Below are positions 8,655 through 56,660 of a DNA stretch of 64,000 nucleotides, piece by piece; position 1 is the stretch's first letter, and every line of letters begins with the position of its first letter. Position numbers and translations under genes: made by a program. The DNA is from Nemertoderma westbladi (lineage: Eukaryota; Animalia; Xenacoelomorpha). Below the pieces are notes generated by a model, which saw only the letters and a list, made by a program, of their open reading frames with translations, ran no database searches and had not been told where the DNA came from. The stretch is taken from assembly GCA_032718475.1 (NCBI GenBank), contig JAUCBJ010007164.1, positions 1-64,000 of the forward strand. Direction: 5' to 3'.

Positions 8655-11425
8655 ACATTATACAGTACATTTAAATTAACTGTAATAAGGGTTTAAGGGT
8701 TCCTTTCAGTCATCGGTTTATTCAATGTGCATATTATCAAGGACTAGTACAGTAGAAGACCTCCCAAAAACTCAACAATAAGATAATAATACGAAATGGA
8801 TGAAGGTTTTAATTTCAACCCATCATTATTAGCGGTAGACTGACTAGAGACTGTCGATGGATTACCGTCTGAACAAAGTTTTGCTGCCGCTGAATGTTTT
8901 ATGGCCAATGGTCTACAGTAGTATGTACAGTATATCTGCCAAGTTTCAGCTTGAACGGATAACAAATAACGAAAAAAATTTCGGTTACCGCACGAAAAAT
9001 ACCTGATATGCCTCTGAACTAAACATATTGTAGGGCCTACTCAACTCCACATCCAAAATAGCGATATAGATTGAGACTTGTATGGTTTTGGGGCAACTTT
9101 ATAATTTGCTATATAATTTTTTATTTGTTTATTTTCAAAAATTTTCACATGATGGGTGCAAGGTGAAACGTTTAGTGTATTTGGGTGGAAGTGGAGTGGA
9201 GTGTAGTTGAGCGGATGTGGAGTGGAGTTTGGTGAAAGTGAGTCAAAGTGGGTGACATTCGGGTGGAAAGTTGGGTGTACTGTAGTAGGTAAAAACAAGT
9301 AGTATTTTTTTTAAGAAAAAAATTATAGAGACATAAATTCAAGCACTATAAATTCAGTTATTCAAGCAGTTTGTCCCCGATTCGCCCCACCTTTAAGTCC
9401 ATTCGCACCATATGACTTTATTTAATGTTTTACAAATGCTGTAATATCAACATCAATATCAAATCAAATCTATTATTCTGTTATTCCAATATCAAAAACA
9501 ATATAGGACATTTCAAAGTTAACACTGTTGTAATACAGTATGCATAGTGCTCTATAATAATATATATAATTAACAACTATACTGTGGTTGGATATGGATA
9601 GTACAGCTAACAGAAGGCAAACTACAGTCCGTGATGCCATCTCAGATTCTCAACTACTGTACATGTCCAATGATCCTTAACGGATCACATGATGATTTTC
9701 GAATGGATGAAATGTCTGAAAGTTAATTACACTTCTCCCATTTCGTTGTTTGTAATCAATTAGGCTGAATATTGGCATAACCTACTGTACATATAATGTA
9801 TGTACAGTACTAGAGACCACAGGCCAGGTCTATATGATTACGTTGATCAACATACGCAATTATCTACCTTAGTTTGATGAATTATTATTTCTACTACAGT
9901 AAGATCTGTACTGTATAACGATCTTATCGATTCTCGTAAAGATCTTCGCCATTTCTGTCATCGCATGTGATACAAGTTCTTTGCAGAATTTCTCTTGACA
10001 TGAACAGATCTTACCAGATCACATTTTAATTTATCAAAAATGTAAGAAGTTCTAAAAAAATTTCCGCTGTTTCGTTGCAAATTAATTAATATAAAGGTCA
10101 TGAAATTTAAAATAAAACTGCTGAAAATACAGTGTCACAATTGTTTTTCTTGTATTCTACAGTATAATACATTTAAAGGATAATTACATTATTATAAGTG
10201 CATAAAACATACTGTATGTATAACAAATAGAACTTAAGTCCATTAACTTTGTACTAATTACTGTACAGTATATACATTGCCATTCCTTATTACAGCAGAA
10301 GTTTCCAATGCGGTCGTTAAGGCTACGTGACCCTCCTGTGTATCAATACCGTTTTAATTTCCACCGCAACACCACAGCGCCAGTTTAGTTTGTACTGTAG
10401 CTTCATTAAGTTGGTGGTATGTAAAGGTATCTGGATCGTCTCTGTCTCTGTCTCTGTCTCTCCTTTGTATACATATTGTTATATTCATCAAAATTCCAGA
10501 TCAAATAGGCCTACGCAATCATTTCCTTAGCAACGTTCATTCGACGTCATCTCATAAACGTTAGATATTCGTTCTAAAATGGTGCGGGTCGATTCGCCCC
10601 TCGACCTATTCTCAACAAGTCTATTCCGGCCTATTCGAAGAAAGAGTCGCAGCCCCCCCCCCCCCCCCAAGACATTATAGTACTGTAGTTTAATAGCTAT
10701 GGAGTTTTACTATCCTCCTACCACATTTTCACACATGCGAGTCCATTATACCAACTACAGTAATTCCATTATTATTAATTAATTTCTCATGTATTTGTAT
10801 TGTACCACATTGTGTAATTGAGCATATTATTTTTTGCAGTTGGTTGTGGCCCTTGTATGTAAGTGTTTGCTTTATTTTATATATCATCTTAATGTGGGAA
10901 ATATATATACTGTTTATTCAATTCCAGTATTCGCCCCAGTAATATAATATACAGTATGTAATATAATAATGAATAGGGTCTATACTATGACTCACTACTG
11001 TATCACTGTTCAAATATTTTTAGCAAATTGAGGTATCATTTTTTATCATTCTAATTCAAAAAATCGAATTATAAAGGCAACAGGTGCACATGTTGGCTAG
11101 TGCGATAATTTACAAATTACAATTACGTGTACTGTACAGCTGTGTAGTATATTGCATACATAGTCCGACAATAGCAGATATATTATTAATGACAACAGCA
11201 TTGCCAAACTCATGGCATAGCTGACACACATAGCATACCTAATATAATCGCACAATAAAACAAATTCCCTCCACCAAGAGTAATATTGCACTTATTATAA
11301 ACATTGCACATATATACTGTATACGATATTCAATATAACCTACAGTACTGTACTTGCTCCTAAATACAATCGTACTGCACCGTTTACAGCAGCCCGCTTC
11401 CAATCCAAGCTAACGCTGATGGTCC

Positions 11426-12625
11426 TGTAAAAGCTTTTGCGGATATAATCAGTCCCCTTGCCCGCAAAGTACCGTTGTAGGTGTTTTAACGGACATAGAA
11501 GTCATTCTTCTATATGTGTGCTTTGGCGGACATGGCAAGGCACAAAACCCGCAATGCGTCAAATCCTCTAGCACAGTGTAGCCTTGATGATTCAGATTAC
11601 GACATCTAACAGCTGGTTGTTGGCATGGAAACGGCCGTTGGACACATGGTTCTTTGTTTAGCTTAACAGCCAATCAGGGCGATTTTTACTGTCGATGTGG
11701 AGATATTCTACAGATCGTGCTAGGCGTGTTCAGTCTTACTGTTTTCTGTGTTATAGTTTTGTTGTTTCTATCTAGGCCAAGAACACCGGCTCTAGAGTCA
11801 GTTCGTTTTCAGACTTTAGAAGAAACATTAGTAGGCTTAGATTATAGAACGTATAACTGTTATCAACCCAATTATCAGCGCAGTAGCGCAGCGGTACCAT
11901 CTGATATTGTTATAATCTTAACCTACCGTCTTAATGCTTTTACTGTTGTTATTATTTGTATCAGTTGGTTGAATATTATTACTTGGAGAACATCGATAAA
12001 TAACCCAAATTTCCCAATTTTCTTGATACACTACAGGTTAGAGAGACAGGTTACATATAGCGATTGCGACTTATATTATCGTGGTTTGTAGTGAATTTAA
12101 TGCTATTTGATAAGCACTACATGAGTCAATTGCTGTTCTCTTTATGTATGATAAAATTCATTGACGGTCGGCAGATTAGTGTGCAGTATTGTGCGTTACC
12201 GGTAGTGTGCATGATTGTGGCTGATAACTAAGCATTTCCTAAAGAATGCGCCTCATACGTGAATCATAAGCCTTACCGTCTTACCGTTGTGTTTAGTATA
12301 AGTCATATCTCTGTTTACCTAGATAGAGCGCCACGTCCTAAAGGAACTGTTAATATTTCCCGAAAGTGAATAATATTTGTCAGAAATTATTTATTAACGA
12401 TCAATCGAATAATACAGTAAGCTTACACTGCAATAAAATCTAAGCCCTCCGAATCCAGTCTCCCGGGTATATCCAGCGGGTGAATGGACGCGCACTAGGC
12501 TGGCTTCGGCTAATGTTGTGTTTATTGGTATTAAATACTTGTCATATGCTAAAGTCTATTTATAAACCAAAAGACATATAAATTTTGGCAGGTTAAACTG
12601 CTAAAGGTCTTCAAAAGCGCGTACA
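11426..12625 (+). repeat. E1 5' LTR (1200 bp)
   Basis: TGTAAAAGCTTTTGC...AAAAGCGCGTACA. Only about 4 substitutions versus the 3' LTR were seen by eye. CCAAT near 11670 and AATAAA near 12432. Confidence 0.97.
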
Positions 12626-12636
12626 ATAACAGTTAT
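12626..12636 (+). promoter_or_regulatory. Non-tRNA primer-binding site of E1, complementary to LTR positions 11853-11863
   Basis: ATAACAGTTAT abuts the terminal CA of the LTR and is the exact reverse complement of ATAACTGTTAT inside the LTR. There is no TGG-type tRNA PBS. Confidence 0.7.
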
Positions 12637-12979
12637 TGTCTTTATTGCAGTAAGCAATAAAGTTGAAAGTACCGGTCGACCGGTAAACCTGAACCGGTAC
12701 TGCTGTAGGTCCGTAGGCCCAACTGCCAGAATCGGTACTGCTGTAGGTCCGTAGGCCTAACTGCCTGAACCGGTACTGCTGTAGGTCTGTAGGCCCAACT
12801 AACCTAACCGGTACTTCCAGTATAAGTACATTAGTATTATTCGATTTTGATTATTGTATACCGGTAGGTCTTAGTACTTAATCAGGGAACGGCCGCCCTG
12901 GTTTTTTATTGAGATTCTACTTATTTCTGTCGGTTTTATTTACATGTAAGTTAATATTGAGCTGAAGACGTGTAAGTCT

Positions 12980-14866: not shown

Positions 14867-17800
14867 ATGTCTGACACAAAGCAAAACCTGTCAGACAGTC
14901 TAATCGATACAACCATCTGTGACACAGATAGGAGTGTGGAGCGATTAAGAAAGGGGTTCAGCTCACTTCCTACTGAAAGAAAAGTCATCCCTCCAGTAGT
15001 AGTATCAGACCCTAGGCTAATCCAACACCGTAGGTCTATCATCGGCACTCGGGCCCAGGTCAAACGGAACCAAGAGGCAGCTGTCCAACAGCAGCAACAT
15101 CCTAGTCAAGAAACTCGTTCCCAGCGACCCGATAGCTCCAGTAGTTCGGATACTGTAGAGCTGACCCCCGAACGCAGAGTGAAGATGGCGGCTACAGCCT
15201 ATTCGGATCCCCTTCTCACCCTTCCTGCCGCAGTACTAACTACTATATTGATTGCGGTGGAGGAACACCAAGGCGATTGGGCGAGAAGTAAGCGAGCGAC
15301 CCAAGATAGTTATGCGGGATACGCCAGGGAAGAATTGATGTCTATTGTCGAGTCACAATGGAACTTTCCCGGACTCGGACTCCCGTTAGATTTGTCCGAA
15401 GCTACTTGGGAAGACATACACAGGATGGGAGTGACTAAAGATACGATGGATCCAGCTGTTTGGAAGAGGTCGGCAGCAGGATATGTGCAGGGATTCTTCG
15501 GCTCCTTAGAGCGATTAGAAGAACAACTGTTTCGACAACCCCAAGGACCTCAAGAGCAGGAAGAGCTGCTATATCAAGTACACGAAAGAACCCTACGCAT
15601 TAGACTAATCCTATCAGCCTTTGAGGAAACTTCCAAAAGAAGACAGGACACGTCGCTGCAAGTTGCTGTCAAGACTTGGTTCCAGCGGGTAGGTCTCAAA
15701 GTACAAGAAACGGCCCAGTGGAAATCCCAGCTGGCTGAGAGACCAACCTATGAAGAATCAACCGATGCCACCTTTTCTCAAGTGGAAAGCGAAGTGACCG
15801 CAGAGAGACCGCGAACGAGAGACGCCATAGACATCTATCTGTCAGATTATCAACGTTGGACTCAATCGATGCGGAAAGGTTAGCTGCAAACCAAGCTAAA
15901 TTTGATGAAAAACTCCGCCTCGCTAGAGTCCAGGAAGAACAAGTAAAGAAAAAACGGATAGAGGACCGAAAGGCAGCAGCAGTAGCAGCGGCAATGGCAG
16001 AAGCGGAAGCGGCAAAAGCGGCAGCGGCAGTGAAATCCGCAGCAGCAAAGGCAATGGCAGAAGCGGAAGCGGCAAAAGCAGCAGCAGCAAAGGCAGTGGC
16101 AGAAGCAGAACGGAGAGCGTCTGAAGAGACTACCCAACTGGAGTTGGAAAATCTGCAAGAGACGCAAGACTGCATAAATAAACAGTTAACTGCTAGTCAA
16201 ATGCAGATGATGAGTCGATCTACTCCCAAACGCCAAGGATACACATCATCGGAGGAAGGCGAGACCACCGATCCTGAAGGCGGAGGAAATAGATCTCGTC
16301 TAAGCAGGCGTAGAAAAACATCTCACCGTCACAAATTGCCTGATTTGCCCTCAGCGGTTAGAAGACAACTAGCTAGCACAGACTTAGGTAGTACAGAACC
16401 CACAGACCAAATTATTAAGGTCAAAAGACTCCCTATGATAGTTGATGAGCCTGAAATAATTAGGCCTGTCGTTCCCAAAGCCACTCCTGTGCTAGAGAAC
16501 CCTGTACTTCCAGTGCTTAACTCTAAATTCCCTCTACACAGTATTACACTGCCTGTACCCGGTAGAACAGTCCATGCGAATATCCCTGTCCTGGACACTG
16601 AGAGAGAAATCAAAGATTTGTCTCCCGTCGTCCCGCGTTGGCCCGCTACAATGTTGGCGACTCCCGCTTCGGCGGTTGAGTGGGTAGAGGAGGGACGGCG
16701 GGGGATGAATCTCCTGCTCGGACAGATGCAGGAGACTGTCCACCAACTTAAGGGAACAGTAAGGGAAAGTAGGTTAGAATTGCAAGAAGTGCAGCAAAGC
16801 ATCGCGCTAGAACGCGACAAATTAGTCAATATACAAAAGGGTATACCAATACCCCCTGTAACATTGTGTCAACCTGTTAGGTCTGAAGTATTACATGCGC
16901 AAGGTGTGGAGCCTACACGCATCTATACTGCTAGTGAAGTAGAAACTCCTATAGCAAACCCTATTAAGGGTGATTATAAACCTGTTGTTAATGATATTCC
17001 CTATAGACTTGATAATAATAACACGATGGCCCAAGAAAGCTTTACACGTCAGATGGCTAGAACAGAAGCCCGCCAAGCGGTCAAAGTGGGAGAGATCGTC
17101 AAATTCAATGGAGATGAGATGAAATGGTTACCTTTCAATGAATATTACAAAGATAGCATACAGAACTCTGTACTATCTAACGGAGAGAAGCTTAGATTCC
17201 TCATCAAGTGTTTGGAAGGACCTCCCAAGTTAATGGCGTTAAAGTTTATTGGACACCCAGATGGATTAAGACAAGTTTGGGATACATTAAACACCAGGTA
17301 TGGTAACAAGGATAACATAGCTAAGTATTTGTATGCAAAATTAGTAGCCCCCAGAAACTTCCTTAGTAGCGGGATTATAGAGTTTTCCGATGAGATTCAG
17401 GAGATCTGTAGACAATTGGACTGGTTAGGTAAGTCTCATGAATATCAGAGTTCCATGGTTATTGGAGCAGTAGTCTCTACTTTACCAAAGGGTGGAGTAT
17501 GTACACGCTGGGACAAGAAAGTGTTGTATATGAATGAGCAGCAACGACGAAGCCCTACCATGGCTGATCTCATGTCCTTCTTAGATGGTGAAGTAAAACT
17601 ACAACTCATCAAGCAGTCCAGAGAGAAAACATCGGAAAATAAGGTAAGTGAGAAACCCGTTTCTAGGAGAAGAGTAACACCAGTGTGTTACACTGACGAC
17701 GGCGAAAGCCAAGCTTCTCAAGAAGAAGACAGCGGGAAAGACACTGACCGATTTTACTACGTTAACAAAACCTCAAAGGACGTAAGTAAATACAAGGCTC

Positions 17801-20800
17801 GAACCAAAGATAGGAGAGAACAGGTTGCCAAGACTCCTCCTCAGTCTCCTAACAGAATGCACGGAAGAAAGCCCGAAGAAAGAACGAGAGTGCATCACGT
17901 TACCCAAGGTAAAGTGAGTAACACCAAACCAAACTGTGCGCTGTGCGACGGGCCCCACCGTTTGAGTGCGTGTGCTGAATTTCTAAAGAAATCCCTTGTA
18001 GACAGACGTGCAGTCATGTGGGATAAGCGGTTATGCTATAATTGCCTCAGATCAGGACACCAATGGCGAACCTGTTACTCTGACGTAAAGTGTGCAAAGT
18101 GTGGCGCGAAACATCACATCTTGTTACACAGTGAGTTCGAACGAGACAACCCGAGTCAGGTAAGTGAGCCCGAACTACATGTCCAATTCAGTGATGTAAA
18201 TGACACTGATCAAGAGTCTGAGATGGAAGGATTCTATACTGACGAATTCTCCGACGCCAACGAATCCTGTTACCTAATAAATACCGCAGTATATCGAGCA
18301 CTTACTTACGAAAAGGACACCGACAATGAGTTCCCCCCAACTACCTTTGCCAGACAACCATCTTGGAAAGCTCCAACTTCCAACGTAGGAATCAGAGAAT
18401 TTCCTGTAGTGCAGGTAAGAGTTCACGGTCCCAACAAAAGTTACATAGTGAACGCCCTCCTTGACTCCGGCAGCACAGGAACATTCATCGATCAAGAACT
18501 AGCCGAAGATATCTTTGCTGGACAACCCAAATTCCGGACTAAATTGAATATGTCAGGAATTATGCAGGTTTGGAAATCTACCATAACGGCAGATTACTAT
18601 GTAGGTGCGTTGTCTACCCCTCAGGATAAATTAGGAGCACAAAGTATAAGGTCAGTAAAAATGGTGGCTATAAAGAACTTCGCTACTACCCAAGTAGAAC
18701 CTTATAACTGGGACGAGGATGAGAGCATCCAACAGCTTAAGATACCTCGATTCCAGACAGATTATCCTGGAGTGCAAATACTCATCGGCCAAAACGCGCA
18801 TGAGGCGCTCGAGACATTGGAGAAACGGCCTGCTCAACCGCAGCCACTACAAACCTATGCGGTAAGAACTAGAGTAGGTTGGTACTTTACTGGACCTTCC
18901 CGCAGAACTCTCGAAGAGAGAATGCCACAAGAACGAATATATCAAGTAAACGATTGGGAAGTGGAGAGCAGTGAGGTGGACGAACTAACTGAGGGAACAC
19001 CATACTCCTCAGATAATGACGACATCTATCAACTCTTCGATGAAGAGAACACAATCGACCTACTTACAGAAAACAAAACTTGGAAAAACCAGGTGAACCT
19101 ATGTCAACTGATTCGCCCATCGGGACCCATTGATTACAATGACGAACTAAATGATGAGATAGAGCGCTACAACGCTAGAACTCGGGACGAACTCGCCGTA
19201 CGATTCTTTACTCAAGAATTGGTAGAGCCCAATTCATACGATAAGGCCCTATCGATAGAAGAAGAAAGAGCCAAGCAAATCCAGGAAACAACTACACGTT
19301 TTTTAAAAGATCAAGGTAGATATGAAATCGGCCTACCATTTCGAAAACGAGAACCTAGATTTATAAATAACAGACCCTTGGCAGAGAAAAGAATCACTCA
19401 ATTACATCGACGCCTTACGGCTAATGCTTCAGCTAAAGAAATGTACCAAACTCAATTGAAGAAATTTATTACAAAGGGATACGCGGAGCGTGTACCGGAA
19501 GGAACACCAGTAACTGAGAGAACGTATTACTTAACACATCATTACGTTCCCAAACCCGGTAAACCCCATGAAGTACGAGTCGTATTCGATGGCTCCGCTC
19601 TATATATGGGCCAATCCCTCAATTCCGAGTTGTTACCAGGACCCAACTTACTTCAATCTTTGTTGGGAATACTTTTAAGATTAAGACAATATTCCATTGC
19701 GTTCGCCTCCGATATAGAAGGAATGTTCTTACAAGCCAAGGCGCTGGATAGAGATAGAGACAGCCTAAGATTTCTGTGGTGGCCTGAAGGAGATCTCAAC
19801 CAGAAACCGGTAGAGTACTGGATGACCATCCAGGCTTTTGGGATCATATCAAGCCCTTCCAACGCCTGCTCCGTGGTGCGGACCACTGCGAATGACAACC
19901 GAGACGCCTTCTCCAAAGAGGTGATAGACAACATCAAGCGCGATATATACATGGACGACAATTTAAAGTCCCTTCCATCAGTAGAAGAAGCCATTGATGT
20001 CGCGAAAGGAACGGTAGAGTGTTTGAAAAGAGGTGGATTTCGACTGACGAAATTCACCAGCAACTCCCGTGAGTTTCTGGAAGCGATACCGGTAGAAGAC
20101 CGAGAACGAAAGACCTAGACTTAATAAAGGACGATCTTCCAGAAACCAAGACGCTTGGCTTGAAGTGGGACACAGAAAGAGATATCCTGTTTTTTCAGCT
20201 AAAGCAGCGAGATAATCCAGTTCGGACCAAGCGGATTTGTTTAAGTATCCTGAGCACTTATTTCGACCCATTGGGATTTATTAGCCCAGTTATATTGATT
20301 GCTCGGAGTTTAGTACAACAAATGTGGCTTGAAAACCACTCATGGGACGATCCACTTAAAGGAGAACTGTTAAAGAAGTGGATGAAATGGGAAGATTCTC
20401 TACCTGCCATCGAGAGCTTTGTAATTTCCCGTGCATATTTTGGTCATGTTCTTCCTACGTATTCCTATCAACTCCATGTGTTTGGAGACGCCAGCGACAT
20501 GGGAATAGGTATAGTAGCATATCTGCGAGTCGAAACTCCGGATGGAATCAAAGTCGCCTTGGTTACCTCTAAGGCATTGATTAACAACAAGCTAAAGGTT
20601 CCTCGAGTGGAGTTAAAAGCGGCTTTATACGCTACAGCCATCGGCCGGAACGTAACAGAACAAATCGACTATCCACTGGAGAAAACTGTTTATTGGACCG
20701 ACGCTTTACTCGTGTTGGAGTATATAACCAATGAAGTCTGTCAGTTCAGCGTTTTTGTTACTAACAGGGTAGCTATTATTCTTAGTCGCACAAAGATAGA

Positions 20801-22832
20801 TCAATGGAGACATTGCCCCGGTACGATTAATCCCGCCGATATCGCCTCCAGGGGAGCAACTCCACAGGAACTGATAGATACTCCAGACTGGTTGGGTGGA
20901 CCCGACTTCCTGAGTAAGGAAGAGGATGAATGGCCTCCTCACCTTACTACGGCGGAGATTAGACAAGCCAAGGGAGCGGAGAAAGTCAAACCTAAAACCC
21001 GGGCGAGTAAATCGAAGTTATTTAAACCGACTATCGATCTATCTGTATTACATACTTCCGGAAACGATGCTTCGGATCCACAATCCCTCGCCACAAATAA
21101 GTCTGTTGTGGAAATTAGAGATAGAGATTGGAAATCTGGAACACCAGACGTCTCGCAAGGAATCTCACCCCTGCTGCAGAGAGCAATGCATCACTACAGT
21201 TCCTGGAATCGGCTCTGTAAAGCCGTCACATATTTAAGGCGATGTTTTCATCATCACTACTCCAGGACGAAGACCATTAGTGATACCGCTCCATTGACAT
21301 ATGCGCAAGTTCATGTTATTAAAAATTTACCCAAATATAAGACATCCGACCGGTTTCTAAAGGAGAAAATCAGTTACCAGGAGCATGAAGAAACCAATAA
21401 GCAGATACTGAGACTCCTGCAATGCTATGAGGATTCCGATAAGTATTTCCTGTTGTTGAGAAATCCGCAGATGCGCTTAAGGGATCGCTTCTCTAGCACA
21501 ATGATAGATGGGTTAATACGTGTTGGAGGAAGGCTCACCAATGCGCCATTATCCTTTGACACTAAATTCCCCATACTCATTAGAAATCTTGAAGTACAAA
21601 TCAAGATGATTGTAGATGTTCACAGTAAACTTTATCATGCTGGTAGAGAACGAGTTCTTAGCGAAATTCGAACTCGCTATTATTTTGATAAACCCCGTAG
21701 AGCTCTGAACCAAGTTCTTAGGAACTGCATACCCTGTAGGAAAGCATTCAGTAGGCCTTTAACACAGCGAGAGGCAGAATTACCTAGGGAACGAGTAAGC
21801 TTCTATGAACCACCTTTTACTAATACTGGTGTAGATTTATTTGGCCCTATTGAAGTATATCGTGCTAGGACTATAGTCAAGAGATGGTGTGTCATCTTCG
21901 TATGCATGACTTGTAGAGCCATCCATCTCGATATGGTGAACGATCTATCTACCAACAGCTTCGTATTAAGTTTACGCCGACAGATCGCTCGCTTCGGGAC
22001 TAGTAATACCATGAGATCGGATAAGGGAACGAACTTCATTGGTGCCAACAACGAAATCCAGGCTTACGTGAAGGACTGGAACCAAAGACAGGTGGACGAT
22101 CAGCTAAGGATAACAGCGTCTAGCTGGACCTTCAACGCCGCCGACGCCCCTTGGTGGGGAGGAAGTTGGGAGAGATTAATTAGAAGTGTCAAGACCGCAT
22201 TTCACTTTATAGTGCCATGCCGCGCGTATCTCACCGACGAACTTTTGCGGACGTTAATGGAGGAAATAGCTGCCTATCTCAATGAGAGACCGCTTATGCC
22301 AGTCTTATCGAGTCCCGATTCCCTGGAAGCGCTAACACCCGCGCACTTTCTACTGAAGAAACCTGTAGCCATGCTCCCACGATTGGAGATTACCGACGGA
22401 GACGAATACTGCCGTCGAACTTGGCAACTTATGCAGTTGCTATCTCGTCGTTTCGCTGACCATTTCGAGAAACATTATCTGCCCACGCTACAACTTCGAA
22501 CTAAGTGGTTTGCGCAGCAAGAAAACGTCAGCGCCGGAGATATGGTGCTTATTGTAGATTCAGACCTTCCACGTAAACGGTGGCAGACAGGTCGTATCAT
22601 CGAGACTCACATCTCGGATTATGGTTTAGTACGCTCGGTAGAACTCGTCGTCATGCGGCGTAACTTCAAGAAGCCAGGCATAATCTTTGAGACGCAACAA
22701 CTCAACCGCCCAGTTGGTCGTTTATGTTTACTGGAAAGAGACCGAGAACTCTCCGGAAACTATGGAAGGCAAGACACTCTTCCCACGACCACCTCCCTAA
22801 TTCCTCAAACATCTAGGGACTCCCCAACGTGA
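14867..22832 (+). CDS. BEL/Pao Gag-Pol polyprotein (about 2650 aa), split by two 1-nt frameshifts near 15858 and 20108
   Basis: DUF1759-like gag (KFNGDEMKWLPF); three BEL-type knuckles (CALCDGPHRLSAC, CYNCLRSGHQWRTC, CAKCGAKHH); protease LLDSGS; RT (RVVFDGS, SDIEGMFLQ, YMDD); Pao RNase H (VFGDAS, PRVELKAA, YWTD, NPADIASRG); integrase (H..H..CIPC, GVDLFGP, SDKGTNF, WERLIRSVK). Confidence 0.95.
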
Positions 22833-24449
22833 TACGTCTGGAGTGGGTGCATGACTATATTATTCTATCTATTTTTATTATATTTTATATGAGAACGTTA
22901 TTATGTACTTTATTATAATCGTTTTATTTAATTTTATTTAGTAGAATGTTATTTTAGATTATTTAGTAGGTTAGTGCAATATATTAGTGTTTATTACGTA
23001 ATTACACATAATATATTTAATATGACGGCGAGAAATAATTCTTTCTTTTTCCTTACTGTCCGTATTATATTATAAATACGAGACTACATGTAAGATGACA
23101 TGTCAGTACTTATTAAAGAACAATAAAGCTCCTGCTATATTTAAGTATTATCGGTAGGCAGAGTATTAGGAATGCAAAGTTCAGATCCTCGTGTCTCGGC
23201 TAAACCAAGCTCTGGGTAGACCTTGGAAACGACTTGCCTCTTCACACTGACATTGCTTCGTGCGATATTGCTCTTCTACTTTATATTAAATAATACATAT
23301 AGTAGCGTGATGTCCCTATAACAGTAGCGTAAAACGCAAATAAATCTGTTAAACCTTTTGACCATCTGTAATTTTAGTCGATTAAGATATCGCGGCACCC
23401 ACCGATATACTTGAAAGACAAATTCTAGAATCAGTGGTTAACGTCCCCAGACAAGTTCTGGAATAAATCGGTGCCTATCTTAAATATTAATTTAATATTT
23501 ATTAAAATCTGTAAAATGCAGATCCTTTAAAATTTCTAGTCAATTAAGATATCGCAGCACTTACCGATACTCTTAAAAGACAATTTTATAGAATTAAGGA
23601 TCCTAGGTCCCCAGACATGCTCTGGAATAAAATTGTGCCAATTTTACCATCAAATAATAAAATTCACGGGAATAAAGTTAAATTCATATCTTAAATGAAT
23701 TTCATAAATTGTCATTTTGTGCAATTTATAACATTCCCAAAATTCCATTAATTAATAGATCATGGGAGCGGAGATTCATCCTATTGAGTGTATTAGAGTG
23801 CGAGAATCTCCAACATATAGTCAATAGCCGATAAAATTAATAAAATCATGTATAAAGAGGATATTGACAATTAAAGAATTACTATTAAATAGCATTCCAG
23901 ATCTGTATGCATGAGAATTACCCTAATTCTACCGCTAGCTTTCCATAATGTCACCATAGCAACACCCACGCTAGAATTAGAAGCAAGTTAAAAGAACAAT
24001 AGAAAGCTTGTCCCATTGCATAGCATAGAGAATACATAGCACACTGTTAGTATCCAAGGATACACAGTAATAACGTGACATTCTGGAAGGCACTGACTAA
24101 CGGACAAATGGCCTGTATGTGTACAATTGGTGACAGTTGTGTTGGAATTTGTGCGTTATAGGTGAATGTTACTGCTAAAGTATGTTTACAGTAGCTAGTC
24201 GCAATTGTAAAAGTAGCCCAACTCTCCTATAGAAAGAACCTAAAGTGGATCCAAGCCTTTGGGACGGACAGTGGAGTGACTTGTGCCGGTTATCGTTGTC
24301 GTGCTGTTGCTACATGTTGGCGTAAACACCGCGACGACGGTACATCGGCGCTGAGAATCCCACTGTCCGGGGGCAACGAGAGGTAGGCAGCGACGCCCGC
24401 TAGCCTAAACATAAACTCATTTCGATATTAATAAACTCAGATAGCAGAT
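22833..24449 (+). other. 1.6-kb non-coding pol-ORF3 intergenic region with conserved predicted RNA helices
   Basis: No ORF of 60 aa or more. Strongly conserved with E2 52454-54110, including an identical block of about 120 nt. Several stems show compensatory or G-U-compatible changes. Confidence 0.7.
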
Positions 24450-27400
24450 ATGACGGAGTTGATAGAAGATGATCTTGGTATCAGGGAGCGATATACTCTA
24501 CCTTTACAAGCATTTGTGGATAGCTTGATACGCGGTGAAGCCGATCCAACCATTACGGAGGGCGATGGTCGTTATATCGAACCGCCGATGTCCCAAGAGC
24601 AACTTACGCGTGAATTGGACTATCGAAAATTCACCACTCGCTATACGCATCGTAATGGTACGTATATGGACTTCTTAACTACCGGCCATCCTATCGATTT
24701 ACATGATACGGACGATGTAGACACCGAAAGGGAAATGGTTCTATTTAAATATCATACCCAGCGGAGTCGTAACGATAAACCGAGAATAGAACACGAAAAT
24801 TCTATTCGTAACAGACTGGAAAGAGAAAACGTTGAAGAACCGGATAAAAGCATCGACTTCAACGACTACCTGGAATTTTTGAGAGAAACCTATCTCAACA
24901 TCGCCAGTCAGCAGAACCTAGAGACTCGATATCCTCAAGGTATACATCATGACCCTATTGTAGAACTCAAACGGCTCTATTTCACTATGATGTATCTTAC
25001 CGCCGATCGTCCACTACCTGTTATCCCGGATAGTTTTGAACAAATGGAAGAATATTGTAAAACTGGAGAACGATCACCCGCGTTTCCTCTACAGGACGTA
25101 CGTCTTTGGTATTATTGTGACGAATGCCCTAGACCCAACCAACAAACTGAAAGACATAAACATCCGCGGAGACGTTGCGCTAAACACAGTTTTACGCGTT
25201 ATACTTACGGGAGTTTCGAGCGAAACATGTTCGACGTATCACCTACGATCGCTCGTCTTAAACGATCACTGAATAAACCCATGATCAGAGTTCCGGAATA
25301 CTCGGTCAGGCCTCCTCATTCCCTAGTGAGACCTCAAACTCTTGATCCTAACAGTATCACTGATCCTCCCGAACTCTATTCACTGTTCAAAGATTTAGTG
25401 CTACCCGAACAATTAATCGGTGGTGCTCCGGTAGTGGGTTCGTTAGACATTCGCCCATCCTACTTAGCCGGATTGGGACGCGGGCATCTAATATCGCCAT
25501 TTGATCCTTACAATCGTCCAGGATTAAACCCGATGCAACCCGCCACGGAAGTCGAGGAGAGCGTTATAAGAAACGCTTTAGACGCTATTCGACAGAAGAT
25601 CGGAAAGGGAACACAAGATTGTTTAGAGAAACGTAAATTACAACAACAAGTCCAATCGGTGAAGGAGTTAGCCTTGCCACAGTTCGATAGAGAATCCAAA
25701 ACCTCGAGGAGGACATCGAGCTTGGACGCACGTATTCTCTACAAGAGTTTCTAGATGAACGCTTACCGAGACAAGCGGAAGAAAATCTACTCGAGGAGAA
25801 ACACATGAAAATGGACGAGAGAGAAGAAGCCGCTTTAGCCCAACCCAAAGCTCAAATCCTTATGACAGATCTCTACTCTAAAACCGTCCGTCATCCCTCG
25901 ATGGTTCCACATTTCGGAGACAAACTCTTCGCGACGATACAACCCCAACCGGTTGATATCAGTACAGGATCGCAAAATCTTATCGCTGACGCCCCTATGT
26001 TACAGCGTCCGCCGATCGAGGCGGCTCGTGTTGACGGTATACTCGTTGAACCTCCGGACAATCGATCGGATCTTGTCCGTCGTATGGTACACGATGTCAA
26101 CATACGCGCTAGACCTTTACAGAACTCGTTTTATGGGATTAAAGACCACCCTTATTACGTTAATCTGACTCAGTATTATATGGTAAAACCAGAAGACCCG
26201 ACGCATAATTTAAAGTTTCTACCACTAATAAATCCTCTAGACGTTGTCGAACTCGAACAATTGCAGAAACATCTGGATCAGTTAGTAAAGGTAAACTCAT
26301 TCAGAAAACCATATAACATTTCTCGAATCGAGAAGGATATAAAACCTCCTTATAATCTCGATGGATTTATTAAAACTCGATTAGTCCATTGGAATCTAGA
26401 TGTATTATTTGAAGAAGAGAAAATACAAAGATATGGAAATGTGGAGACGTATACCACTCGGCACATGAAGTATAGTGATCTCCCTGACGCTAACCAATGC
26501 GCCACCTTGTGGCATCCAGTAGGGATGACCCTAGAGAACGCCACCAAAGAGTGGAATGAAACTCTTAATGTCATTGAGATGTATGGAGTTGTCACCTACG
26601 ATAATGAAGGTAGCGTTCCGGTCGGGGAACTAGGAACTACGCGCATGATCCACATACGCGGATTAGCTGGTTCTACCCACGTGTTTACTCGAGCGTGTTC
26701 CGACGTGATTGATTATTCCTTTGAAACTCTCACCGAAACGCAAAAGAATCTCCGACATGGACAATTCGAACTCGCGCAGCGTTACGTCATTGACACCGAA
26801 CGCAAACCGGCCATGGGTATCGATGGATCGATGTTACCCCAGCCCGTACTCGAGATGTTGTTCAACGAAAGAATCCTTAAAATCGGCTCAGCTGTTTATG
26901 GAGATCTCCAAAACGCAAAACGACTTTCGGAATATGGAAAATATCCCATATCCTTTCGTGGATACGCAGCTGATTGCTCCCTGGGCAGAAGGTCGAGGTT
27001 TCTTTCGCACCATGTATGCTAATACGTCCAGCAGCATTACAAAGGTGCAACGAACTTCCATCGGACATCTTGCCTTTCAGGAATACGGATGGAATTTCAA
27101 AGTCGGAAATCCCATCAACTATCAACAAGTATACGGAGACCATTATTCTCGATTATACTTTGATGGACCATTGACCGCACCTGGCGCCATGTATAGCTTC
27201 ATGAGTGTTCCACTCCGTCCCTCCTTAGCTATCTACACGATCTTTGAAAACACCGCACTTTCCGGTTGGCTAGCCGATGTGTGCAGTCGTACTATACGCG
27301 CCCATCCATTAATACTTGGGACCAAACTCGCTAAGCTAGATGAACATAATAAATTCCTCCGCTTCGAATGTTTCCGGCGATTTTTAACCCCGTTCCGCAA

Positions 27401-28709
27401 CGTGGATAGCCAATTTAAAGACCGCGCTTTGACCAAGCTCAGCCTAAGAAACTCAGCTGCAGAGAAGTTAGATAGCGCTGGATTTGCCATTTTCAAAGAG
27501 ATTTGTATATCGAACTTGCACTCCTCTGTTATACAAAGACCTCGAATCCCCACAGGTTATTCTGTCGTGGAAATTCAGACAATAGGTCCACTTGAAGAGA
27601 CAGACACGCCCACCTCAGTTATGCACTGGGAAGACGAACCAATATGCCTAGAATCTGAGGAGATTCAGCCTATCGCGCCCCGGAACAGCGACAACGATTA
27701 CATCCTAGAATGGTATCAAGGTCCACAGTGTCTCACTGCGTACGATTATCGACATGCCAACTATGTTTCTAGGCAACGTTGTCGGTTATGCGCATCGAGA
27801 GACCATGTTACGCCCATGGACACAAACGTCCGCTGTTCCTATTTCCAAGAACAACCGACGATGGAAATTTATTGCGCATATTGCAGACTCAATAACTTGC
27901 ATATTTTTGCGGTTTGCCCTCAATTTATGACTCAATGTCAACATTGTCAACTAAAGGGACACGCCAGTTTCGATTGCCCTTTTAATCACGATTTGGAAAG
28001 CGTAGATGAAATGATCACACTACGTTACATCAGAGCTTGGGAAGCGAACGCTGATTTACATTGTGATTCGCGCCATCGCTATTATCTTGGACGCGCTTAC
28101 GAAGGAGTTTATGCGTTCCATCCTTATCTATTCGCTTCTGTCGAACAGAAATCACGCATATCGAGTTACGAACTACTGAAGCGCGTCGGAGAATGTATTT
28201 CAACCAAGTTCGTACGCAAATTTCTCAGGAGTGTTAATCCTAGCGACCTTCATTCATATAACCTAATCAATTTTATCCGTCAGGATCCGGACTATGGAGA
28301 CCTATTTGTTAACTCACACCCCGAGTTACAGGAAGTATATCGACGGCCTTACGAATACCGAGCCCGCGAACGCGAGTTGGAAAGAACCATTAAACCCAGG
28401 AAGTTTCTGACTGCCTATGGTCCACCCACGGCTCTCGTTCAGACCACTTGTAAAGGACCCGTAAGAGCGGCTGTCCTAAAACGCGCTCTCAAGGCCGTTA
28501 GACCCCTCTCCCCCGACGTTGATGTCAATCAACCCGGCACTTCGACTGGCGGATACACCGACCATAATCCTACACCCTCTGATGCAATCATATTGCACCC
28601 TTCACCCAGGAGTTATAGCCCTCCTTGTAAAGTGGCTCGCCCCAAAGAGAAAAAGACTCTGGCCAGCTTTAAAAAACTGCGTAAACGCCGTCCACGCAAG
28701 AAAGACTAA
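24450..28709 (+). CDS. E1 ORF3 (about 1419 aa if two 1-nt indels near 25693 and 26940 are corrected): DEDDy/WRN-like 3'-5' exonuclease domain, Cys/His zinc knuckles and a basic C-terminus
   Basis: ExoI-like VVTYDNEG; ExoII-like LPQPVLEMLFNERILKIGSAVYGDL; then FVDTQ..SIGHLA and an ExoIII-like PLRPSLAIYTIFE. Knuckles: CRLCASRDH, CAYCRLNNLHIFAVC, CQHCQLKGHASFDC. Tail KKLRKRRPRKK. The E2 homolog has the A that is missing at 25693, supporting a single ORF. Confidence 0.75.
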
Positions 28710-28779: not shown

Positions 28780-28787
28780 GGGAGCGG
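28780..28787 (+). promoter_or_regulatory. E1 polypurine tract GGGAGCGG
   Basis: Directly abuts the TG of the 3' LTR. Identical in E2 (55414-55421). Confidence 0.7.
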
Positions 28788-29987
28788 TGTAAAAGCTTTT
28801 GCGGATATAATCAGTCCCCTTGCCCGCAAAGTACCGTTGTAGGTGTGTTAACGGACATAGAAGTCATTCTTCTATATGTGTGCTTTGGCGGACATGGCAA
28901 GGCACAAAACCCGCAATGCGTCAAATCCTCTAGCACAGTGTAGCCTTGATGATTCAGATTACGACATCTAACAGCTGGTTGCTGGCATGGAAACGGCCGT
29001 TGGACACATGGTTCTTTGTTTAGCTTAACAGCCAATCAGGGCGATTTTTACTGTCGATGTGGAGATATTCTACAGATCGTGCTAGGCGTGTTCAGTCTTA
29101 CTGTTTTCTGTGTTATAGTTTTGTTGTTTCTATCTAGGCCAAGAACACCGGCTCTAGAGTCAGTTCGTTTTCAGACTTTAGAAGAAACATTAGTAGGCTT
29201 AGATTATAGAACGTATAACTGTTATCAACCCAATTATCAGCGCAGTAGCGCAGCGGTACCATCTGATATTGTTATAATCTTAACCTACCGTCTTAATGCT
29301 TTTACTGTTGTTATTATTTGTATCAGTTGGTTGAATATTATTACTTGGAGAACATCGATAAATAACCCAAATTTCCCAATTTTCTTGATACACTACAGGT
29401 TAGAGAGACAGGTTACATATAGCGATTGCGACTTATATTATCGTGGTTTGTAGTGAATTTAATGCTATTTGATAAGCACTACATGAGTCAATTGCTGTTC
29501 TCTTGATGTATGATAAAATTCATTGACGGTCGGCAGATTAGTGTTCAGTATTGTGCGTTACCGGTAGTGTGCATGATTGTGGCTGATAACTAAGCATTTC
29601 CTAAAGAATGCGCCTCATACGTGAATCATAAGCCTTACCGTCTTACCGTTGTGTTTAGTATAAGTCATATCTCTGTTTACCTAGATAGAGCGCCACGTCC
29701 TAAAGGAACTGTTAATATTTCCCGAAAGTGAATAATATTTGTCAGAAATTATTTATTAACGATCAATCGAATAATACAGTAAGCTTACACTGCAATAAAA
29801 TCTAAGCCCTCCGAATCCAGTCTCCCGGGTATATCCAGCGGGTGAATGGACGCGCACTAGGCTGGCTTCGGCTAATGTTGTGTTTATTGGTATTAAATAC
29901 TTGTCATATGCTAAAGTCTATTTATAAACCAAAAGACATATAAATTTTGGCAGGTTAAACTGCTAAAGGTCTTCAAAAGCGCGTACA
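28788..29987 (+). repeat. E1 3' LTR (1200 bp)
   Basis: Near-identical copy of 11426-12625, followed by TSD GGTCC. Confidence 0.97.
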
Positions 29988-45515: not shown

Positions 45516-46725
45516 TGTAAAAGCTTTTGCTGAATTGTCCAGTTATTTTTCCTTATTTTTCCCGTAAAATACTCTGTAGTTGGTTTACCAGGCATAAAAA
45601 GGCCGTGTCCTTGCTGTACTGGTGTTTTAGCGGACATAAAAGCTATTTCTTCTGTATTTGTACTTTAGAGGACATAATCCGTAATTCCGTGACGTAAAAG
45701 CTCGATACTCTTGAAAACAGTGTCGCTACCATGACGACGGCTAGCAGCTGATATTGCCACGTCGACGTTTCTTTGTTTCTTTGTTCTCTCGTTGTTCAGG
45801 TTGACCAATCAGAGCGTTTGTTGTCTCTGTGTTGGAGGTATACAGAAACTCAGTAGTTCAGTGTTATGTTTTGCCCAGAGCCTAAGAACCGGCTTTTGGC
45901 ACCTCCGTGTTTTCAGTTTTTAGTCCTACACTAGTAGGCTTAATTATAAGGACATATATCCGTTATCACTGATGTCTGATGACTGATGTCTGCATACTGC
46001 ATACTGCAGTACTGCATACACTGCATACTGTGTAACACTGTGCATACTTTATATTGTTATACTGCTATTTACTGTCAGTTCTTCATAATATGGTTGATGA
46101 ATTATTATATTTGGAATAACGACAAATAACCCCGAAAACCCAATATTCTTGATATACCGAAGGTAAGAGAGAAAGGTTACAGATAAATGATTGCGACCTA
46201 TGTTGAGTGGTTTGAAGTGAATCTAATGTTATTTGATAGACCCTACATGATTCGGTCCGTGTTCCTTTTATATGTGACTAAAATCAGTGAAGATCGGCAG
46301 ATCAGTGTGCAGTATTGTGCAGCATTGTGTATGAGTGAGACTGATAACGAAGCATTTCCTAAAGAATGCGCCATATATGTGAATTGTAACTAAGCCATAT
46401 CGTTGTGAGTAGTTTAAGTCATAACTCTTTTTATATAGATAGAGCGCCACGTCCTAAAGGAACTGTTAATATTTCCCGAAGGTGAATAATATTGTCAGAG
46501 ATTATATAATACTGTCAGTCGAATAATACATTAGGCTTACATAGCAATAAAATTAAGCCGTCGAACCCAATCTCCCGGGTATATCCAGCGGGTGAATGAT
46601 CGCGCACAGATTGGTTTCGACTAGTGTAGTGAATTAAATACTTGTCATAGACTAAAGGTGATTTATTATCTAGAAGACATCCTAATTTGGCGGGTTAAAC
46701 TGCCAAAGGTCTGAAAGCGCGAACA
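45516..46725 (+). repeat. E2 5' LTR (1210 bp)
   Basis: TGTAAAAGCTTTTGC...AAAGCGCGAACA, near-identical to the 3' LTR. Confidence 0.96.
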
Positions 46726-46737
46726 ATAACGGATATA
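46726..46737 (+). promoter_or_regulatory. Non-tRNA primer-binding site of E2, complementary to LTR positions 45955-45966
   Basis: ATAACGGATATA abuts the LTR and is the exact reverse complement of TATATCCGTTAT in the LTR. Confidence 0.7.
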
Positions 46738-49024
46738 GCTTCTTTATTGCAGTAAGCAATAAAGTTGAAAGTACCGGTCAACCGGTAAACCTGAACGGTA
46801 CATCTGTAGGTCGGTAGGCCTAACTGTCCTAACCGGTACTTCCCGTATAAGTACACTAGTATTATTCGATTTGATTGTTGTATACCGGTAGGCTGTTTAA
46901 GAGATTAGGGACTGTACACCCCTTGTTTCTTTTGGAGCTTACTTATTTCTGTCAAGTTTTATTTGTTTGTAGGCCAGTATTGAACAGAAGGCGTGTAAGC
47001 CTGATCAGATTGTACAGACAATTTGTAGGCTGAGCTGTTGTCTGATTGCTGTTAAGTCCGAATGAATTGCAGTGTGTGTAGATCACCTGTCCGATTAAGT
47101 ACGGTTAGGAAGTAGGGGCAGCGAACGCTGTAAGGTAAACCCCCAACTAAAGAATAAGTCGCACTACTGGGTTAGAGCGCATACTCCCTAATCATTTCGG
47201 AGTCTGCATGTCCTGTAGTTTATTTAGGCTTGAGAGTAGTCTGCCATCGTTTAGTCTGTACTTTGTTTGTGTAAGTCTGTACGGGTAGCGTATAATTTTA
47301 TTTAGATAATTTGTAGGCTGGATAGTTGTCCGGCTGTTATTAGGTCTGAACGGATTGCAGTGTGTGTAGATCATTTGTCTGATTAAGTACGGTTAGGAAG
47401 TAGGGGCAGCGAACGCTGTAAGGTAAACCCCCAACTAAAGAATAAGTCGCACTACTGGGTTAGAGCGCATACTCCCTAATCATTTCGGAGTCTGCATATA
47501 CCGTAGTTTGTTTAGGCTTGATAGTAGTCTGTCAGTGTTCGGTCTGTATTTTGTTTGAGTAGTTTGTACGCGTAGCGTAATATTTATTATTCAGAGTTTA
47601 TGCGATTATCCGCAACATTCATTCCCCAAGTTTGTTCCTACAGTAATTGTGTTTGTTATACATACCGTTATAGTTAAATTAACCCCGGTACTACACGGGC
47701 TGCTTGGCATAGGTAAAGACTGGTGATTTTGTGCATCGGTCACTCCAGCAGATGCCGTGGTTCTTTTAGCTGTTCAAGTATATTTAACTACTGATTATAT
47801 GTTATACAAGTACTCGTACCTAATTTAGGGTTTAGTGTACAGTGCTTTCCGAGAGTAATTAGTGTAGGCATTATATTTGTGTTGTAAAGTGGTTAATAGG
47901 CACATTCGATTAGCTCTATTAACTTCTAGGTAGGAACACTCCGTGATACATAACGTAGAACCTATAGCGATACGGCTATAGGTCGTCAGGCGGTGGTATT
48001 TTCCTATCTGGACAACGCAGTGTATTTACTACTACTTATTATTTCAAATACCGCATTACCCTGTCCGTTGTAATAACCAGAATTCTAACCCTTTGTTAGG
48101 CTGGTTTGTAGACTTCTTGTAAAATTACCCTAAAAATTCGTATTTTGTGTTTTGTAAATTTTTATGTTTATTTAGAGATTGTAATCTCACCCGAATTGTA
48201 CGTAATTTGTAGTATTAAGTAACTTAGGTAAATTAGCATTATTTGTTTTAGTGTCCTATAAGTAACACTTCACTGAAAGCGCACCGCTTTGTGTAGTGAT
48301 TACTCCCCAGAAATAATAACATTTATTTCAAACATTGACAAACCCATTAAAACGGGTATATATATATTATAAATCAAATCTAACGATTTATAAATAGTAG
48401 GCCTACCATAAAACCATTAGGTCTCAATATCAGTCGGATTACTGCTCAAATAACGGTAATAAAGTAAGTAAGGTAACCAAGTAACCCTTGAAATTCAGAA
48501 ATTCAGTTATTTAAAATAATTGATATACCGGTATTTACAATAGGCTTATTATATTTATTTCTATAAATTTTAGGTTGAAATCATACCGGTATTCTGTAAT
48601 TAATTCTAGTTTGTAATTATACTTATATATATACACTATAAGTGTAAACTGCATACCGGTATTTACGATAGGCCTATTATCTTTATTTCTATAAATTTAG
48701 GCTGAAATTATACCGGTACTTGTAATTAATTCTAGTCCAGAATTATATATACTACAAACTGTAAGCTGTATACCGGTATTCCGATAGGCCTATTATATAT
48801 TTATATATATTTGTGCTAAAATTATACCGGTATTCTGTGATAAACCTAGTCTGTAATAATAGTTATATATACTATAAGCATACCGGTATTCTAATATATT
48901 ATATATATCACGCTACACTGAGTAGCAGTATCGGTAATTAATTACTAGGCTAGCAGTTAATACTGAATTACTAGACTTGCTTAGACTGTAATATAGCAGT
49001 AGGCATTCAACTGTACAAACAAAA

Positions 49025-52000: not shown

Positions 52001-52453
52001 GTCGAACCTGAAACCCGGACGGGTGGATCGGAGTTATTTGAACCCGGGATAGATCTGTCGGTATTACATGTTGCCAGGGACGACGCCGTGGATCTGGGCC
52101 TCCCCACCGCGAGTGGATTCTTCATGAAGATCAGAGAGAGCGATTGGAGCTCTGGAACATCAGACGTCTCGCAGGGACTCTCACCTCTCCTGCAGAGAGC
52201 GACGGACCACTATAGCTCCTGGAATCGGCTTTGTGACGCCGTCATATACTTTGAGCGATGTTTCTATCGTCACTATTCCAGGACGAAGAGGAAACCTGGA
52301 ATTGTATTCAGGATGCAACGACTCAATCACCCAGTCGGTCGTTTGTGTTTACCGGAAGGGAATGGAGGACTCTCCGGAAACTGTGGAAGGCAAGATTCTC
52401 ATCCCACGACCACCTCCCTAATCCTTCAAACATCTAGGGACTCCATAACGTAA
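49025..52453 (+). pseudogene. E2 Gag-protease reading frame with in-frame deletions of RT/RH and IN; one internal TGA (50723-50725)
   Basis: ORFs 49025-50725 and 50795-52453 share a frame, and the TGA replaces a TGC (Cys) of E1. Junctions near 51800 and 52289 skip E1 about 19020-20779 and 21272-22668. Confidence 0.9.
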
Positions 52454-55421: not shown

Positions 55422-56660
55422 TGTAAAAGCTTTTGCTGAATTGTCCGGTTATTTTTCCTTATTTTTCCCGTAAAATACTCTGTAGTTGGTTTACCAGGCA
55501 TAAAAAGGCCGTGTCCTTGCTGTACTGGTGTTTTAGCGGACATAAAAGCTATTTCTTTTGTACTTTAGTATTTAACTTTAATTAACTTGTATTTGTACTT
55601 TAGAGGACATAATCCGTAATTCCGTGACGTAAAAGCTCGATACTCTTGAAAACAGTGTCGCTACCATGACGACGGCTAGCAGCTGATATTGCCACGTCGA
55701 CGTTTCTTTGTTTCTTTGTTCTCTCGTTGTTCAGGTTGACCAATCAGAGCGTTTGTTGTCTCTGTGTTGGAGGTATACAGAAACTCAGTAGTTCAGTGTT
55801 ATGTTTTGCCCAGAGCCTAAGAACCGGCTTTTGGCACCTCCGTGTTTTCAGTTTTTAGTCCTACACTAGTAGGCTTAATTATAAGAACATATATCCGTTA
55901 TCACTGATGTCTGATGACTGATGTCTGCATACTGCATACTGCAGTACTGCATACACTGCATACTGTGTAACACTGTGCATACTTTATATTGTTATACTGC
56001 TATTTACTGTCAGTTCTTCATAATATGGTTGATGAATTATTATATTTGGAATAACGACAAATAACCCCGAAAACCCAATATTCTTGATATACCGAAGGTA
56101 AGAGAGAAAGGTTACAGATAAATGATTGCGACCTATGTTGAGTGGTTTGAAGTGAATCTAATGTTATTTGATAGACCCTACATGATTCGGTCCGTGTTCC
56201 TTTTATATGTGACTAAAATCAGTGAAGATCGGCAGATCAGTGTGCAGTATTGTGCAGCATTGTGTATGAGTGAGACTGATAACGAAGCATTTCCTAAAGA
56301 ATGCGCCATATATGTGAATTGTAACTAAGCCATATCGTTGTGAGTAGTTTAAGTCATAACTCTTTTTATATAGATAGAGCGCCACGTCCTAAAGGAACTG
56401 TTAATATTTCCCGAAGGTGAATAATATTGTCAGAGATTATATAATACTGTCAGTCGAATAATACATTAGGCTTACATAGCAATAAAATTAAGCCGTCGAA
56501 CCCAATCTCCCGGGTATATCCAGCGGGTGAATGATCGCGCACAGATTGGTTTCGACTAGTGTAGTGAATTAAATACTTGTCATAGACTAAAGGTGATTTA
56601 TTATCTAGAAGACATCCTAATTTGGCGGGTTAAACTGCCAAAGGTCTGAAAGCGCGAACA
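55422..56660 (+). repeat. E2 3' LTR (1239 bp)
   Basis: Copy of the 5' LTR with about 27 extra bp near 55560-55590, followed by TSD GCGCA. Confidence 0.96.

Follow-up and report, generated by a model that had tools for sequence, protein, structure and literature searches.

How does a BEL/Pao retrotransposon prime its reverse transcription when no tRNA site follows its 5' LTR? In the ICTV profile the family is described as tRNA-primed, with an 18-nt primer-binding site (PBS) for tRNA-Arg or tRNA-Gly and a genome of 4-10 kb (PMC8742986); the original prediction for the present locus had started from the same description. The question is raised by two elements, E1 and E2, situated in a 64,000-nt stretch of the Nemertoderma westbladi genome, the whole of which was analysed and is called here the window. 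As predicted, the sequence after the 5' LTR was found to be without TGG in either element, and the 18-nt site for tRNA-Arg or tRNA-Gly was absent from both.

We consider it likely (probability about 0.78) that E1 and E2 prime minus-strand synthesis with 11-12 bases of their own LTR RNA, in a Tf1-like manner; this reading was made from comparisons of sequences. Most likely we are dealing with a known mechanism, self-priming, that is new for a superfamily described as tRNA-primed.

Elements E1 and E2

The coordinates of the features of E1 and E2 are given in Table 1. Both elements were filed as BEL/Pao because of their protein domains. The LTRs have the form TG...CA and are flanked by short target duplications. 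Gag was recognized by a Pfam match to DUF1759 and by a triple Cys-His box in the translation. The order protease-RT-RNase H-integrase was accompanied by the BEL-specific domains Peptidase_A17 and DUF5641, most of pol having been lost from E2. Peptidase_A17, DUF5641 and the integrase were Pfam matches as well, and the protease motif and YMDD were read in the translation. The top-scoring homologs carry PF05380, and no close relative was found, the best proteins being 33-39% identical.

Three Cys-His boxes, the order of the pol domains, DUF1759, Peptidase_A17, DUF5641, the TG...CA ends and a 5-bp duplication are shared with Belpaoviridae/Semotivirus (Bel, Pao, Tas, Suzu, Sinbad). Unlike the members described in the ICTV profile (PMC8742986), E1 and E2 lack a tRNA site; three extra ORFs bring E1 well over the size range of the family. 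The Pfam search gave no chromodomain match, a domain expected in the polyprotein of a Ty3/gypsy chromovirus. E1 and E2 are not members of the Tf1/sushi group and are like it only in their way of working.

Both elements are young insertions and represent two subfamilies that are ~80% alike. We counted 4 differences per 1,200 nt between the LTRs of E1, and two substitutions and a 30-nt indel between those of E2. Neither copy is intact, which the original prediction had overlooked: in E1 the pol frame is interrupted between RT and RNase H, and E2 is without RT, RNase H and the integrase core. E2 would be mobilised in trans. The extra ORFs of E1 had no match to a Pfam family above the cut-off and no hydrophobic, membrane-like stretch, so they are not envelope-like; the last one (666 aa) has 21 cysteines and one weak zinc knuckle. 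They are kept in part in E2 (~54000-55440).

Two observations concern the leaders. Each holds two tandem copies of ~290 nt (12991-13572 in E1, 47016-47595 in E2), and an ORF of 340 aa without a Pfam match (14861-15883, + strand) overlaps the start of the gag ORF of E1.

Table 1. Coordinates of the features of E1 and E2 in the window.
Feature	Position	Strand	Basis or remark
E1, BEL/Pao LTR retrotransposon	11426-29987	+	LTR comparison; 18.6 kb
E1 target-site duplication GGTCC, 5 bp	11421..11425		second copy 29988-29992
E1 5' LTR, 1200 nt, TG...CA	11426..12625	+	99.7% identity with 28788-29987
E1 putative self-primer, 11 nt	11853..11863	+	copy in 3' LTR at 29215-29225
LTR arm of second LTR-leader helix, E1	12403..12415	+	partner 12834-12846
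Sole AATAAA of E1 LTR, likely poly(A) signal (putative function)	12432..12437	+	E2: 46546
E1 PBS, non-TGG, directly 3' of LTR	12626..12636	+	
9-bp hairpin immediately 3' of PBS, conserved in E2	12640..12662	+	sequence, folds
E1 gag (DUF1759, three Cys-His boxes), protease, RT as far as YMDD region	15754..20118	+	Pfam, translation
E1 RNase H (Pfam Peptidase_A17), integrase, DUF5641	20073..22832	+	frame differs from gag-RT frame
E1 three extra ORFs (439, 443, 666 aa) after pol	24435..28709	+	Pfam, translation
Purine-rich tract preceding E1 3' LTR	28780..28787	+	same in E2
E1 3' LTR	28788..29987	+	
E2, BEL/Pao copy	45516-56660	+	LTR comparison
E2 target duplication GCGCA	45511-45515 and 56661-56665		
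E2 5' LTR, TG...CA	45516..46725	+	
E2 putative self-primer, 12 nt	45955..45966	+	copy in 3' LTR at 55890-55901
E2 PBS, non-TGG	46726..46737	+	
E2 gag-protease remnant	48992..52453	+	non-autonomous copy
E2 3' LTR, TG...CA	55422..56660	+	

Complementarity Between the PBS and the LTR

The original prediction had stated that the nucleotides directly following the 5' LTR, 11 in E1 and 12 in E2, are the exact reverse complement of a site within the LTR, and we confirmed this for both elements. The two LTR sites are homologous in the E1/E2 alignment and are situated 773 nt (E1) and 771 nt (E2) from the LTR end. A PBS of ~11 nt complementary to the element's own LTR, which is a feature of Tf1/sushi elements, is therefore present in both. 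The PBS differ at position 6 (A in E1, G in E2) and position 8 (T in E1, A in E2), and each difference is compensated by a complementary change in the LTR, as had been claimed. Position 12 also differs and pairs in E2 only. The helix begins exactly at the LTR boundary, the next pair on the 3' side of the primer, C against the last A of the LTR, being mismatched in both elements.

From the base composition, the expected number of chance matches per LTR was 0.0011 for E1 and 0.00024 for E2. The real score was attained by 0/200 shuffles for either element, and by 2/200 (E1) and 1/200 (E2) pseudo-PBS positions. The likelihood that two random changes per site would land on paired positions with complementary letters was P ~0.002, a value that refers to one contrast only. 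The complementarity in E1 and E2 is real and well beyond chance.

Other copies of the family were represented in two DNA runs. Among the matches listed, the likeness to E1 ended at 11864-11865 and resumed near 11915 at contig joints. Since the likeness stopped at the same place in the E1/E2 alignment, the conserved block ends just past the primer site. No rows covering the primer or the PBS were present among the 40 listed of the 368 contigs aligned to E1. A conserved 30-nt word of the LTR had 0 metagenome matches. Viral contigs contained no relative. We found no tRNA genes in the window or in 15 comparison loci, and the Rfam search showed no ribozyme or known RNA in positions 11300-15800 (best E 1.6) or in six relatives.

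Folding of the Primer Helix

The computed probability of the primer helix varied with the position at which the RNA was made to start. In E2 it was 0.96 for an RNA starting at the primer, 0.32 with 25 nt of upstream sequence added and 0 with 60 nt. In E1 it was 0.15 for a start at 11853 and 0 with either 25 or 60 nt added. The low values in E1 are due in part to a local hairpin of its PBS, which is near-palindromic and may form 7 bp at -2.6 kcal/mol; this property was missed in the original prediction. The primer site of E2 is not palindromic.

A start of the RNA at the primer is thus favoured by folding, and a weak signal of pairing upstream of the primer (Fisher combined p 0.009, 2/25 elements individually, the elements being related to each other) points the opposite way. 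A TATA box at a fixed spacing from the primer was not found. The missing fixed TATA box, taken together with the weak upstream pairing, hints that the RNA may start further 5', unlike in Tf1.

We also observed two more LTR-leader helices. The first one (Table 1) has its counterpart in E2 at 46519-46529 with 46859-46869. In the second one, positions 12427-12437 are complementary to positions 12641-12651 of the leader, and the helix covers the only AATAAA. Both are invariant between E1 and E2, with no covariation, and both cross the primer helix; long-range pairing may therefore serve other ends. Because the partner of the AATAAA exists only after the 5' LTR, the leader pairing is a candidate mask of the 5' poly(A) signal. 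The extra helices may form an alternative fold that masks this signal, which keeps a structural explanation alive.

Self-Pairing in Other BEL/Pao Loci

An alignment of pol led to 101 distant BEL/Pao loci, 80 of them taken from 562 metagenome candidates and 21 from prokaryote bins. Being metagenome or bin contigs, the comparison loci may be chimeric. The 21 loci (L081-L101) are situated in bins with sponge-, clam- and insect-associated names and are probably contamination from the host animals. A usable LTR end, fixed by the divergence of the two LTR copies, was available in 18/101 loci; the others were without a second LTR, ended inside it or were too short. The preset rule accepted a match of at least 10 nt at an offset of 0-3, either contiguous or split by GT[AG]AG...YAG.

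Four of the 18 loci had a TGG site (L002, L096, L100 and, on a re-read end, L034); their own-LTR score was 4 nt and none of them self-paired. Among the 14 non-TGG loci, on the other hand, 12 self-paired over 10-14 nt, ten of them by the preset rule. Each of these ten was exceeded by at most 1/200 pseudo-PBS positions and at most 1/200 shuffles. Relaxing the rule post hoc brought in the two further loci, L084 (11 nt at offset 4; 0/200) and L049 (donor GTACGT; 11 nt). L025 and L048 gave no self-match, with uncertain LTR ends; the former has neither TGG nor a self-match at 1100-1170 and groups with fish proteins beside the TGG-type L034.

We then compared every PBS with every LTR in a 20x20 matrix under the relaxed rule throughout. 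All 14 self-pairing elements had an own-LTR match of 10-14 nt, and 0/380 comparisons with foreign LTRs reached 10 nt. The complementarity first noticed in the window was in this way found again in other family members. In a set of 25 elements there were 21 different 10-nt cores, all starting with GT or AT, and 19/25 matches were 10 or 11 nt long. The helix started 0-4 nt from the LTR end in 14/14 elements with a fixed end, and it had no G-U pair, given that only exact matches were scored. The independent self-pairing loci support the original proposal that priming in a BEL/Pao lineage is tRNA-independent.

Primers Split by a Predicted Intron

In 7 of the 12 self-pairing loci (L046, L049, L053, L064, L083, L087, L091) the helix was complete only across a GT-AG intron. 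The 3' part of the primer follows a pyrimidine tract and YAG, and the 5' part precedes a splice donor located 71-697 nt upstream. In the six split loci with donor GT[AG]AG, the 7-31 YAG sites of the LTR were ranked by pyrimidine content; the acceptor came first in five loci and second in one. For the donor-side letters of these six loci the joint chance was ~1e-12, a value overstated because the loci are related. Splicing is therefore predicted from the sequences of the split relatives to join the primer.

Since the complement exists only after removal of the intron, the primer site in these relatives would act as RNA and lie inside the transcript. For the intron to be inherited, minus-strand strong-stop DNA would have to stop 3' of the joint; the upstream part of the LTR would then be copied from the unspliced 3' copy. 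A strong-stop DNA ending 3' of the joint is what a Tf1-like cut of a self-primer predicts. In L046 both splice sites are kept in both LTRs, the LTRs being only ~78% alike.

Class B, the loci with no fixed end, gave ten more split matches of like form, compared to 6/3720 positions in the null, as well as three plausible contiguous matches; all of these were picked by eye. Labels in this class were given only to split matches of the ACA|GT type and to the three contiguous matches at plausible ends, and they serve as supporting evidence only. The background in class B included many contiguous matches of 10-13 nt at non-LTR positions (~13 expected from 8144 positions).

One more locus, L037, has an acceptor before the 3' part of the primer in one LTR and a joined primer in the other (1-326 and 6924-7103). 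Its LTRs are 88% alike and differ in the state of the intron, possibly a loss of the intron caught in one contig or possibly a chimeric assembly.

E1 and E2 themselves are without an LTR intron. A search for a split primer gave no candidate with a strong donor, and the matches obtained under relaxed settings were no better than the contiguous site. A candidate intron further 3' in the LTR, noticed by eye, was dismissed, since copying into strong-stop DNA should purge it.

Position of E1 in the BEL/Pao Tree

A tree of 41 rows was built from RT, RNase H and integrase by a quick search under LG+C20, with near-duplicate and unlabelled loci left out. A branch with SH-aLRT 99 separated all 18 self-pairing comparison loci from all 7 TGG loci. 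Three named proteins with no PBS label, from a killifish, an oyster and a brachiopod, fell on the self-pairing side as well. The priming label required one change on the tree compared to a mean of 6.4 for shuffled labels.

E1 is attached by a long branch between the self-pairing and the TGG groups, with support 90. FastTree joined E1 to the long insect and nematode branches, which belong to the TGG-side group, and a tree constrained to have E1 in this group was 8.6 lnL better (p-AU 0.66). Given the long branch and the better likelihood of the rival placement, the evidence from the relatives may not transfer to E1 by descent. E1 shares its origin with the self-pairing group or represents a second origin; the two placements are indistinguishable.

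Proposed Mechanism

The position and length of the match, its perfect pairing, its covariation and its exclusion from TGG elements are direct observations. From them we infer the following cycle. Transcription would start at or shortly before the LTR site, which would fold back onto the PBS. A cut of the RNA immediately 3' of the helix, for which the RNase H of RT is the probable enzyme (an RNase H region is present in the sequence of E1), would leave a free 3'-OH on the first base past U5. Extension from this end would yield strong-stop DNA, which would run through U5 and R as far as the cut and then jump to the 3' R. Finally, the plus strand would copy the primer into a new PBS. Such regeneration of the PBS from the primer is established retroviral logic, and it would keep both sites in perfect Watson-Crick register. 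The designation "Tf1-type" used in the original prediction holds for the geometry and is putative for the chemistry.

In many relatives the primer would be assembled by splicing out the LTR intron, and E1 and E2 would represent an intron-less state. On balance we lean towards a wider reading, held less firmly than self-priming itself. In a large BEL/Pao lineage of aquatic animals a self-primer of 10-14 nt, built by the host spliceosome, would have replaced the tRNA; splicing would license replication, and the cut of the primer would hide the intron from strong-stop DNA. E1 and E2 would either belong to this system as its intron-less form or have invented self-priming separately.

Alternative Explanations

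The primer might be RNA of the element acting in trans, such as a short or spliced LTR transcript, an LTR small RNA, a second packaged genome or a processed 3' end. We regard this as unlikely, though all the covariation data fit it. Folding in cis is weak for E1 and is lost when 5' sequence is added, and E1 and E2 have a loop of 760 nt, compared to ~50-240 nt in the relatives (primer site or second exon to LTR end). The steady length of 10-14 nt and the strong cis fold of E2 (0.96), on the other hand, suit the geometry of Tf1. In addition, full-length strong-stop DNA made on a spliced 5' R would purge the intron at once, whereas L046 keeps it at ~78% identity of the LTRs.

Slightly less probable again is a regulatory role of the helix, in poly(A) choice, packaging or a dimer switch, the actual primer being a fragment of a host tRNA, or some other host RNA, with partial pairing to these bases. 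Priming by half-tRNAs is known in copia lineages, as described in a part of PMC6317226, and the two extra LTR-leader helices, one of them over the only AATAAA, cross the primer helix. These two helices, however, do not covary, and no single host RNA could pair with U as well as A at PBS position 8, or with all 21 different cores. The start of the helix within 0-4 nt of the LTR end in 14/14 elements and the lack of G-U pairs among the exact matches scored fit templated copying better than a structural helix, in which G-U pairs are expected at some frequency.

It is very improbable that the complementarity arose by chance, the DNA being AT-rich, or through an artefact of assembly. The E1 PBS is a near-palindrome and the window provides only one evolutionary contrast, but the expected numbers of matches were 0.0011 and 0.00024, and foreign LTRs matched in 0/380 comparisons. 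The E2 site is no palindrome, and each copy has the LTR site in its 5' as well as its 3' LTR.

Relation to Known Systems

Self-priming, as the preferred reading, likens E1 and E2 to Tf1/Tf2 of Schizosaccharomyces pombe, to Tf1/sushi elements and to the Tcn1 chromoviruses, all of which have, in place of a tRNA site, a PBS complementary to ~11 nt of their own LTR RNA. Unlike Tf1/sushi elements, E1 and E2 have the pol of BEL/Pao, another superfamily, and a loop of ~760 nt. Tf1/sushi elements have extra U5 pairing beside the cut site; here direct pairing past the 3' end of the primer (bases after the primer compared with the U5 end) was detected in 0/25 elements at p<=0.05. Other departures from a host tRNA primer are the Cer element of C. 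elegans, said to encode its own tRNA-like primer, and the Tor elements of tunicates, for which priming by spliced-leader RNA is reported.

According to passages of PMC7175516, the PBS of Tf1 binds the first 11 bases, and the cut by RNase H falls between the 11th and the 12th base; an intron-split primer, as in the BEL/Pao relatives, is not described for Tf1/sushi in these passages. Excerpts of PMC6317226 and PMC6934838 report self-priming for Tf1/sushi and Tcn1 and predict it for the plant TAR copia lineage. The TAR lineage (Houba, Osr-1) of plant Ty1/copia is a case outside gypsy in which self-priming was, as here, predicted from sequence (excerpts of PMC6317226). Since TAR belongs to plant copia, a separate superfamily, the two cases probably arose independently. 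Fungal GalEa copia elements and the TRIMs of bivalves likewise have no canonical PBS after the LTR, and they have a local hairpin of the internal region, compared to the long-range LTR match in E1 and E2 (excerpts of PMC6934838).

No report of self-priming in BEL/Pao or of a splice-built primer was found in searches of the open full-text literature, in line with the claim of novelty made in the original prediction; a prior mention in subscription papers, supplements, Repbase or GyDB is possible. The words "primer," "priming" and "tRNA" are absent from the BEL/Pao survey PMC3118150. The PBS is not discussed in the accessible portions of PMC554778 and PMC6238403, and those of PMC13524379, PMC8233318, PMC12451622, PMC4558846 and PMC3601003 contain nothing on BEL/Pao priming.

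So far, self-priming has been shown only in Tf1, which is of the gypsy type; for copia there is a prediction in a single plant lineage. The BEL/Pao case, if true, puts it in all three LTR superfamilies and bears on which came first, self-priming or tRNA priming, a question discussed in a portion of PMC3601003. A splice-built primer, if true, would tie the replication of a retroelement directly to host splicing and would explain the persistence of an intron inside an LTR. Annotation tools that seek only tRNA sites would score such elements as having no PBS. The signature also yields exact, testable coordinates for the RNA start, the splice joint and the cut site.

Other Features of the Window

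E2 is inserted in a gypsy-type element, with gag, protease and the start of RT on its left (43651-44796) and an integrase (rve) on its right (56634-57896). A foldback-like element of 9.8 kb (33777-43599) has terminal inverted repeats of ~1.1 kb that are 90% alike; its interior holds arrays of 147-bp units in inverted orientation.

Two long uninterrupted host ORFs were observed. One of them (61462-62691) has a FARP-like FERM domain, and its identity to the proteins found does not exceed 50%; the other one (7536-8654) has a weak match to the PhyH dioxygenase. Such ORFs suggest a fast-evolving animal with few introns. Two tandem arrays, one of 27-nt and one of 21-nt units, occupy positions 6090-7450 and 29993-30795, the latter array starting right after the 3' target duplication of E1.
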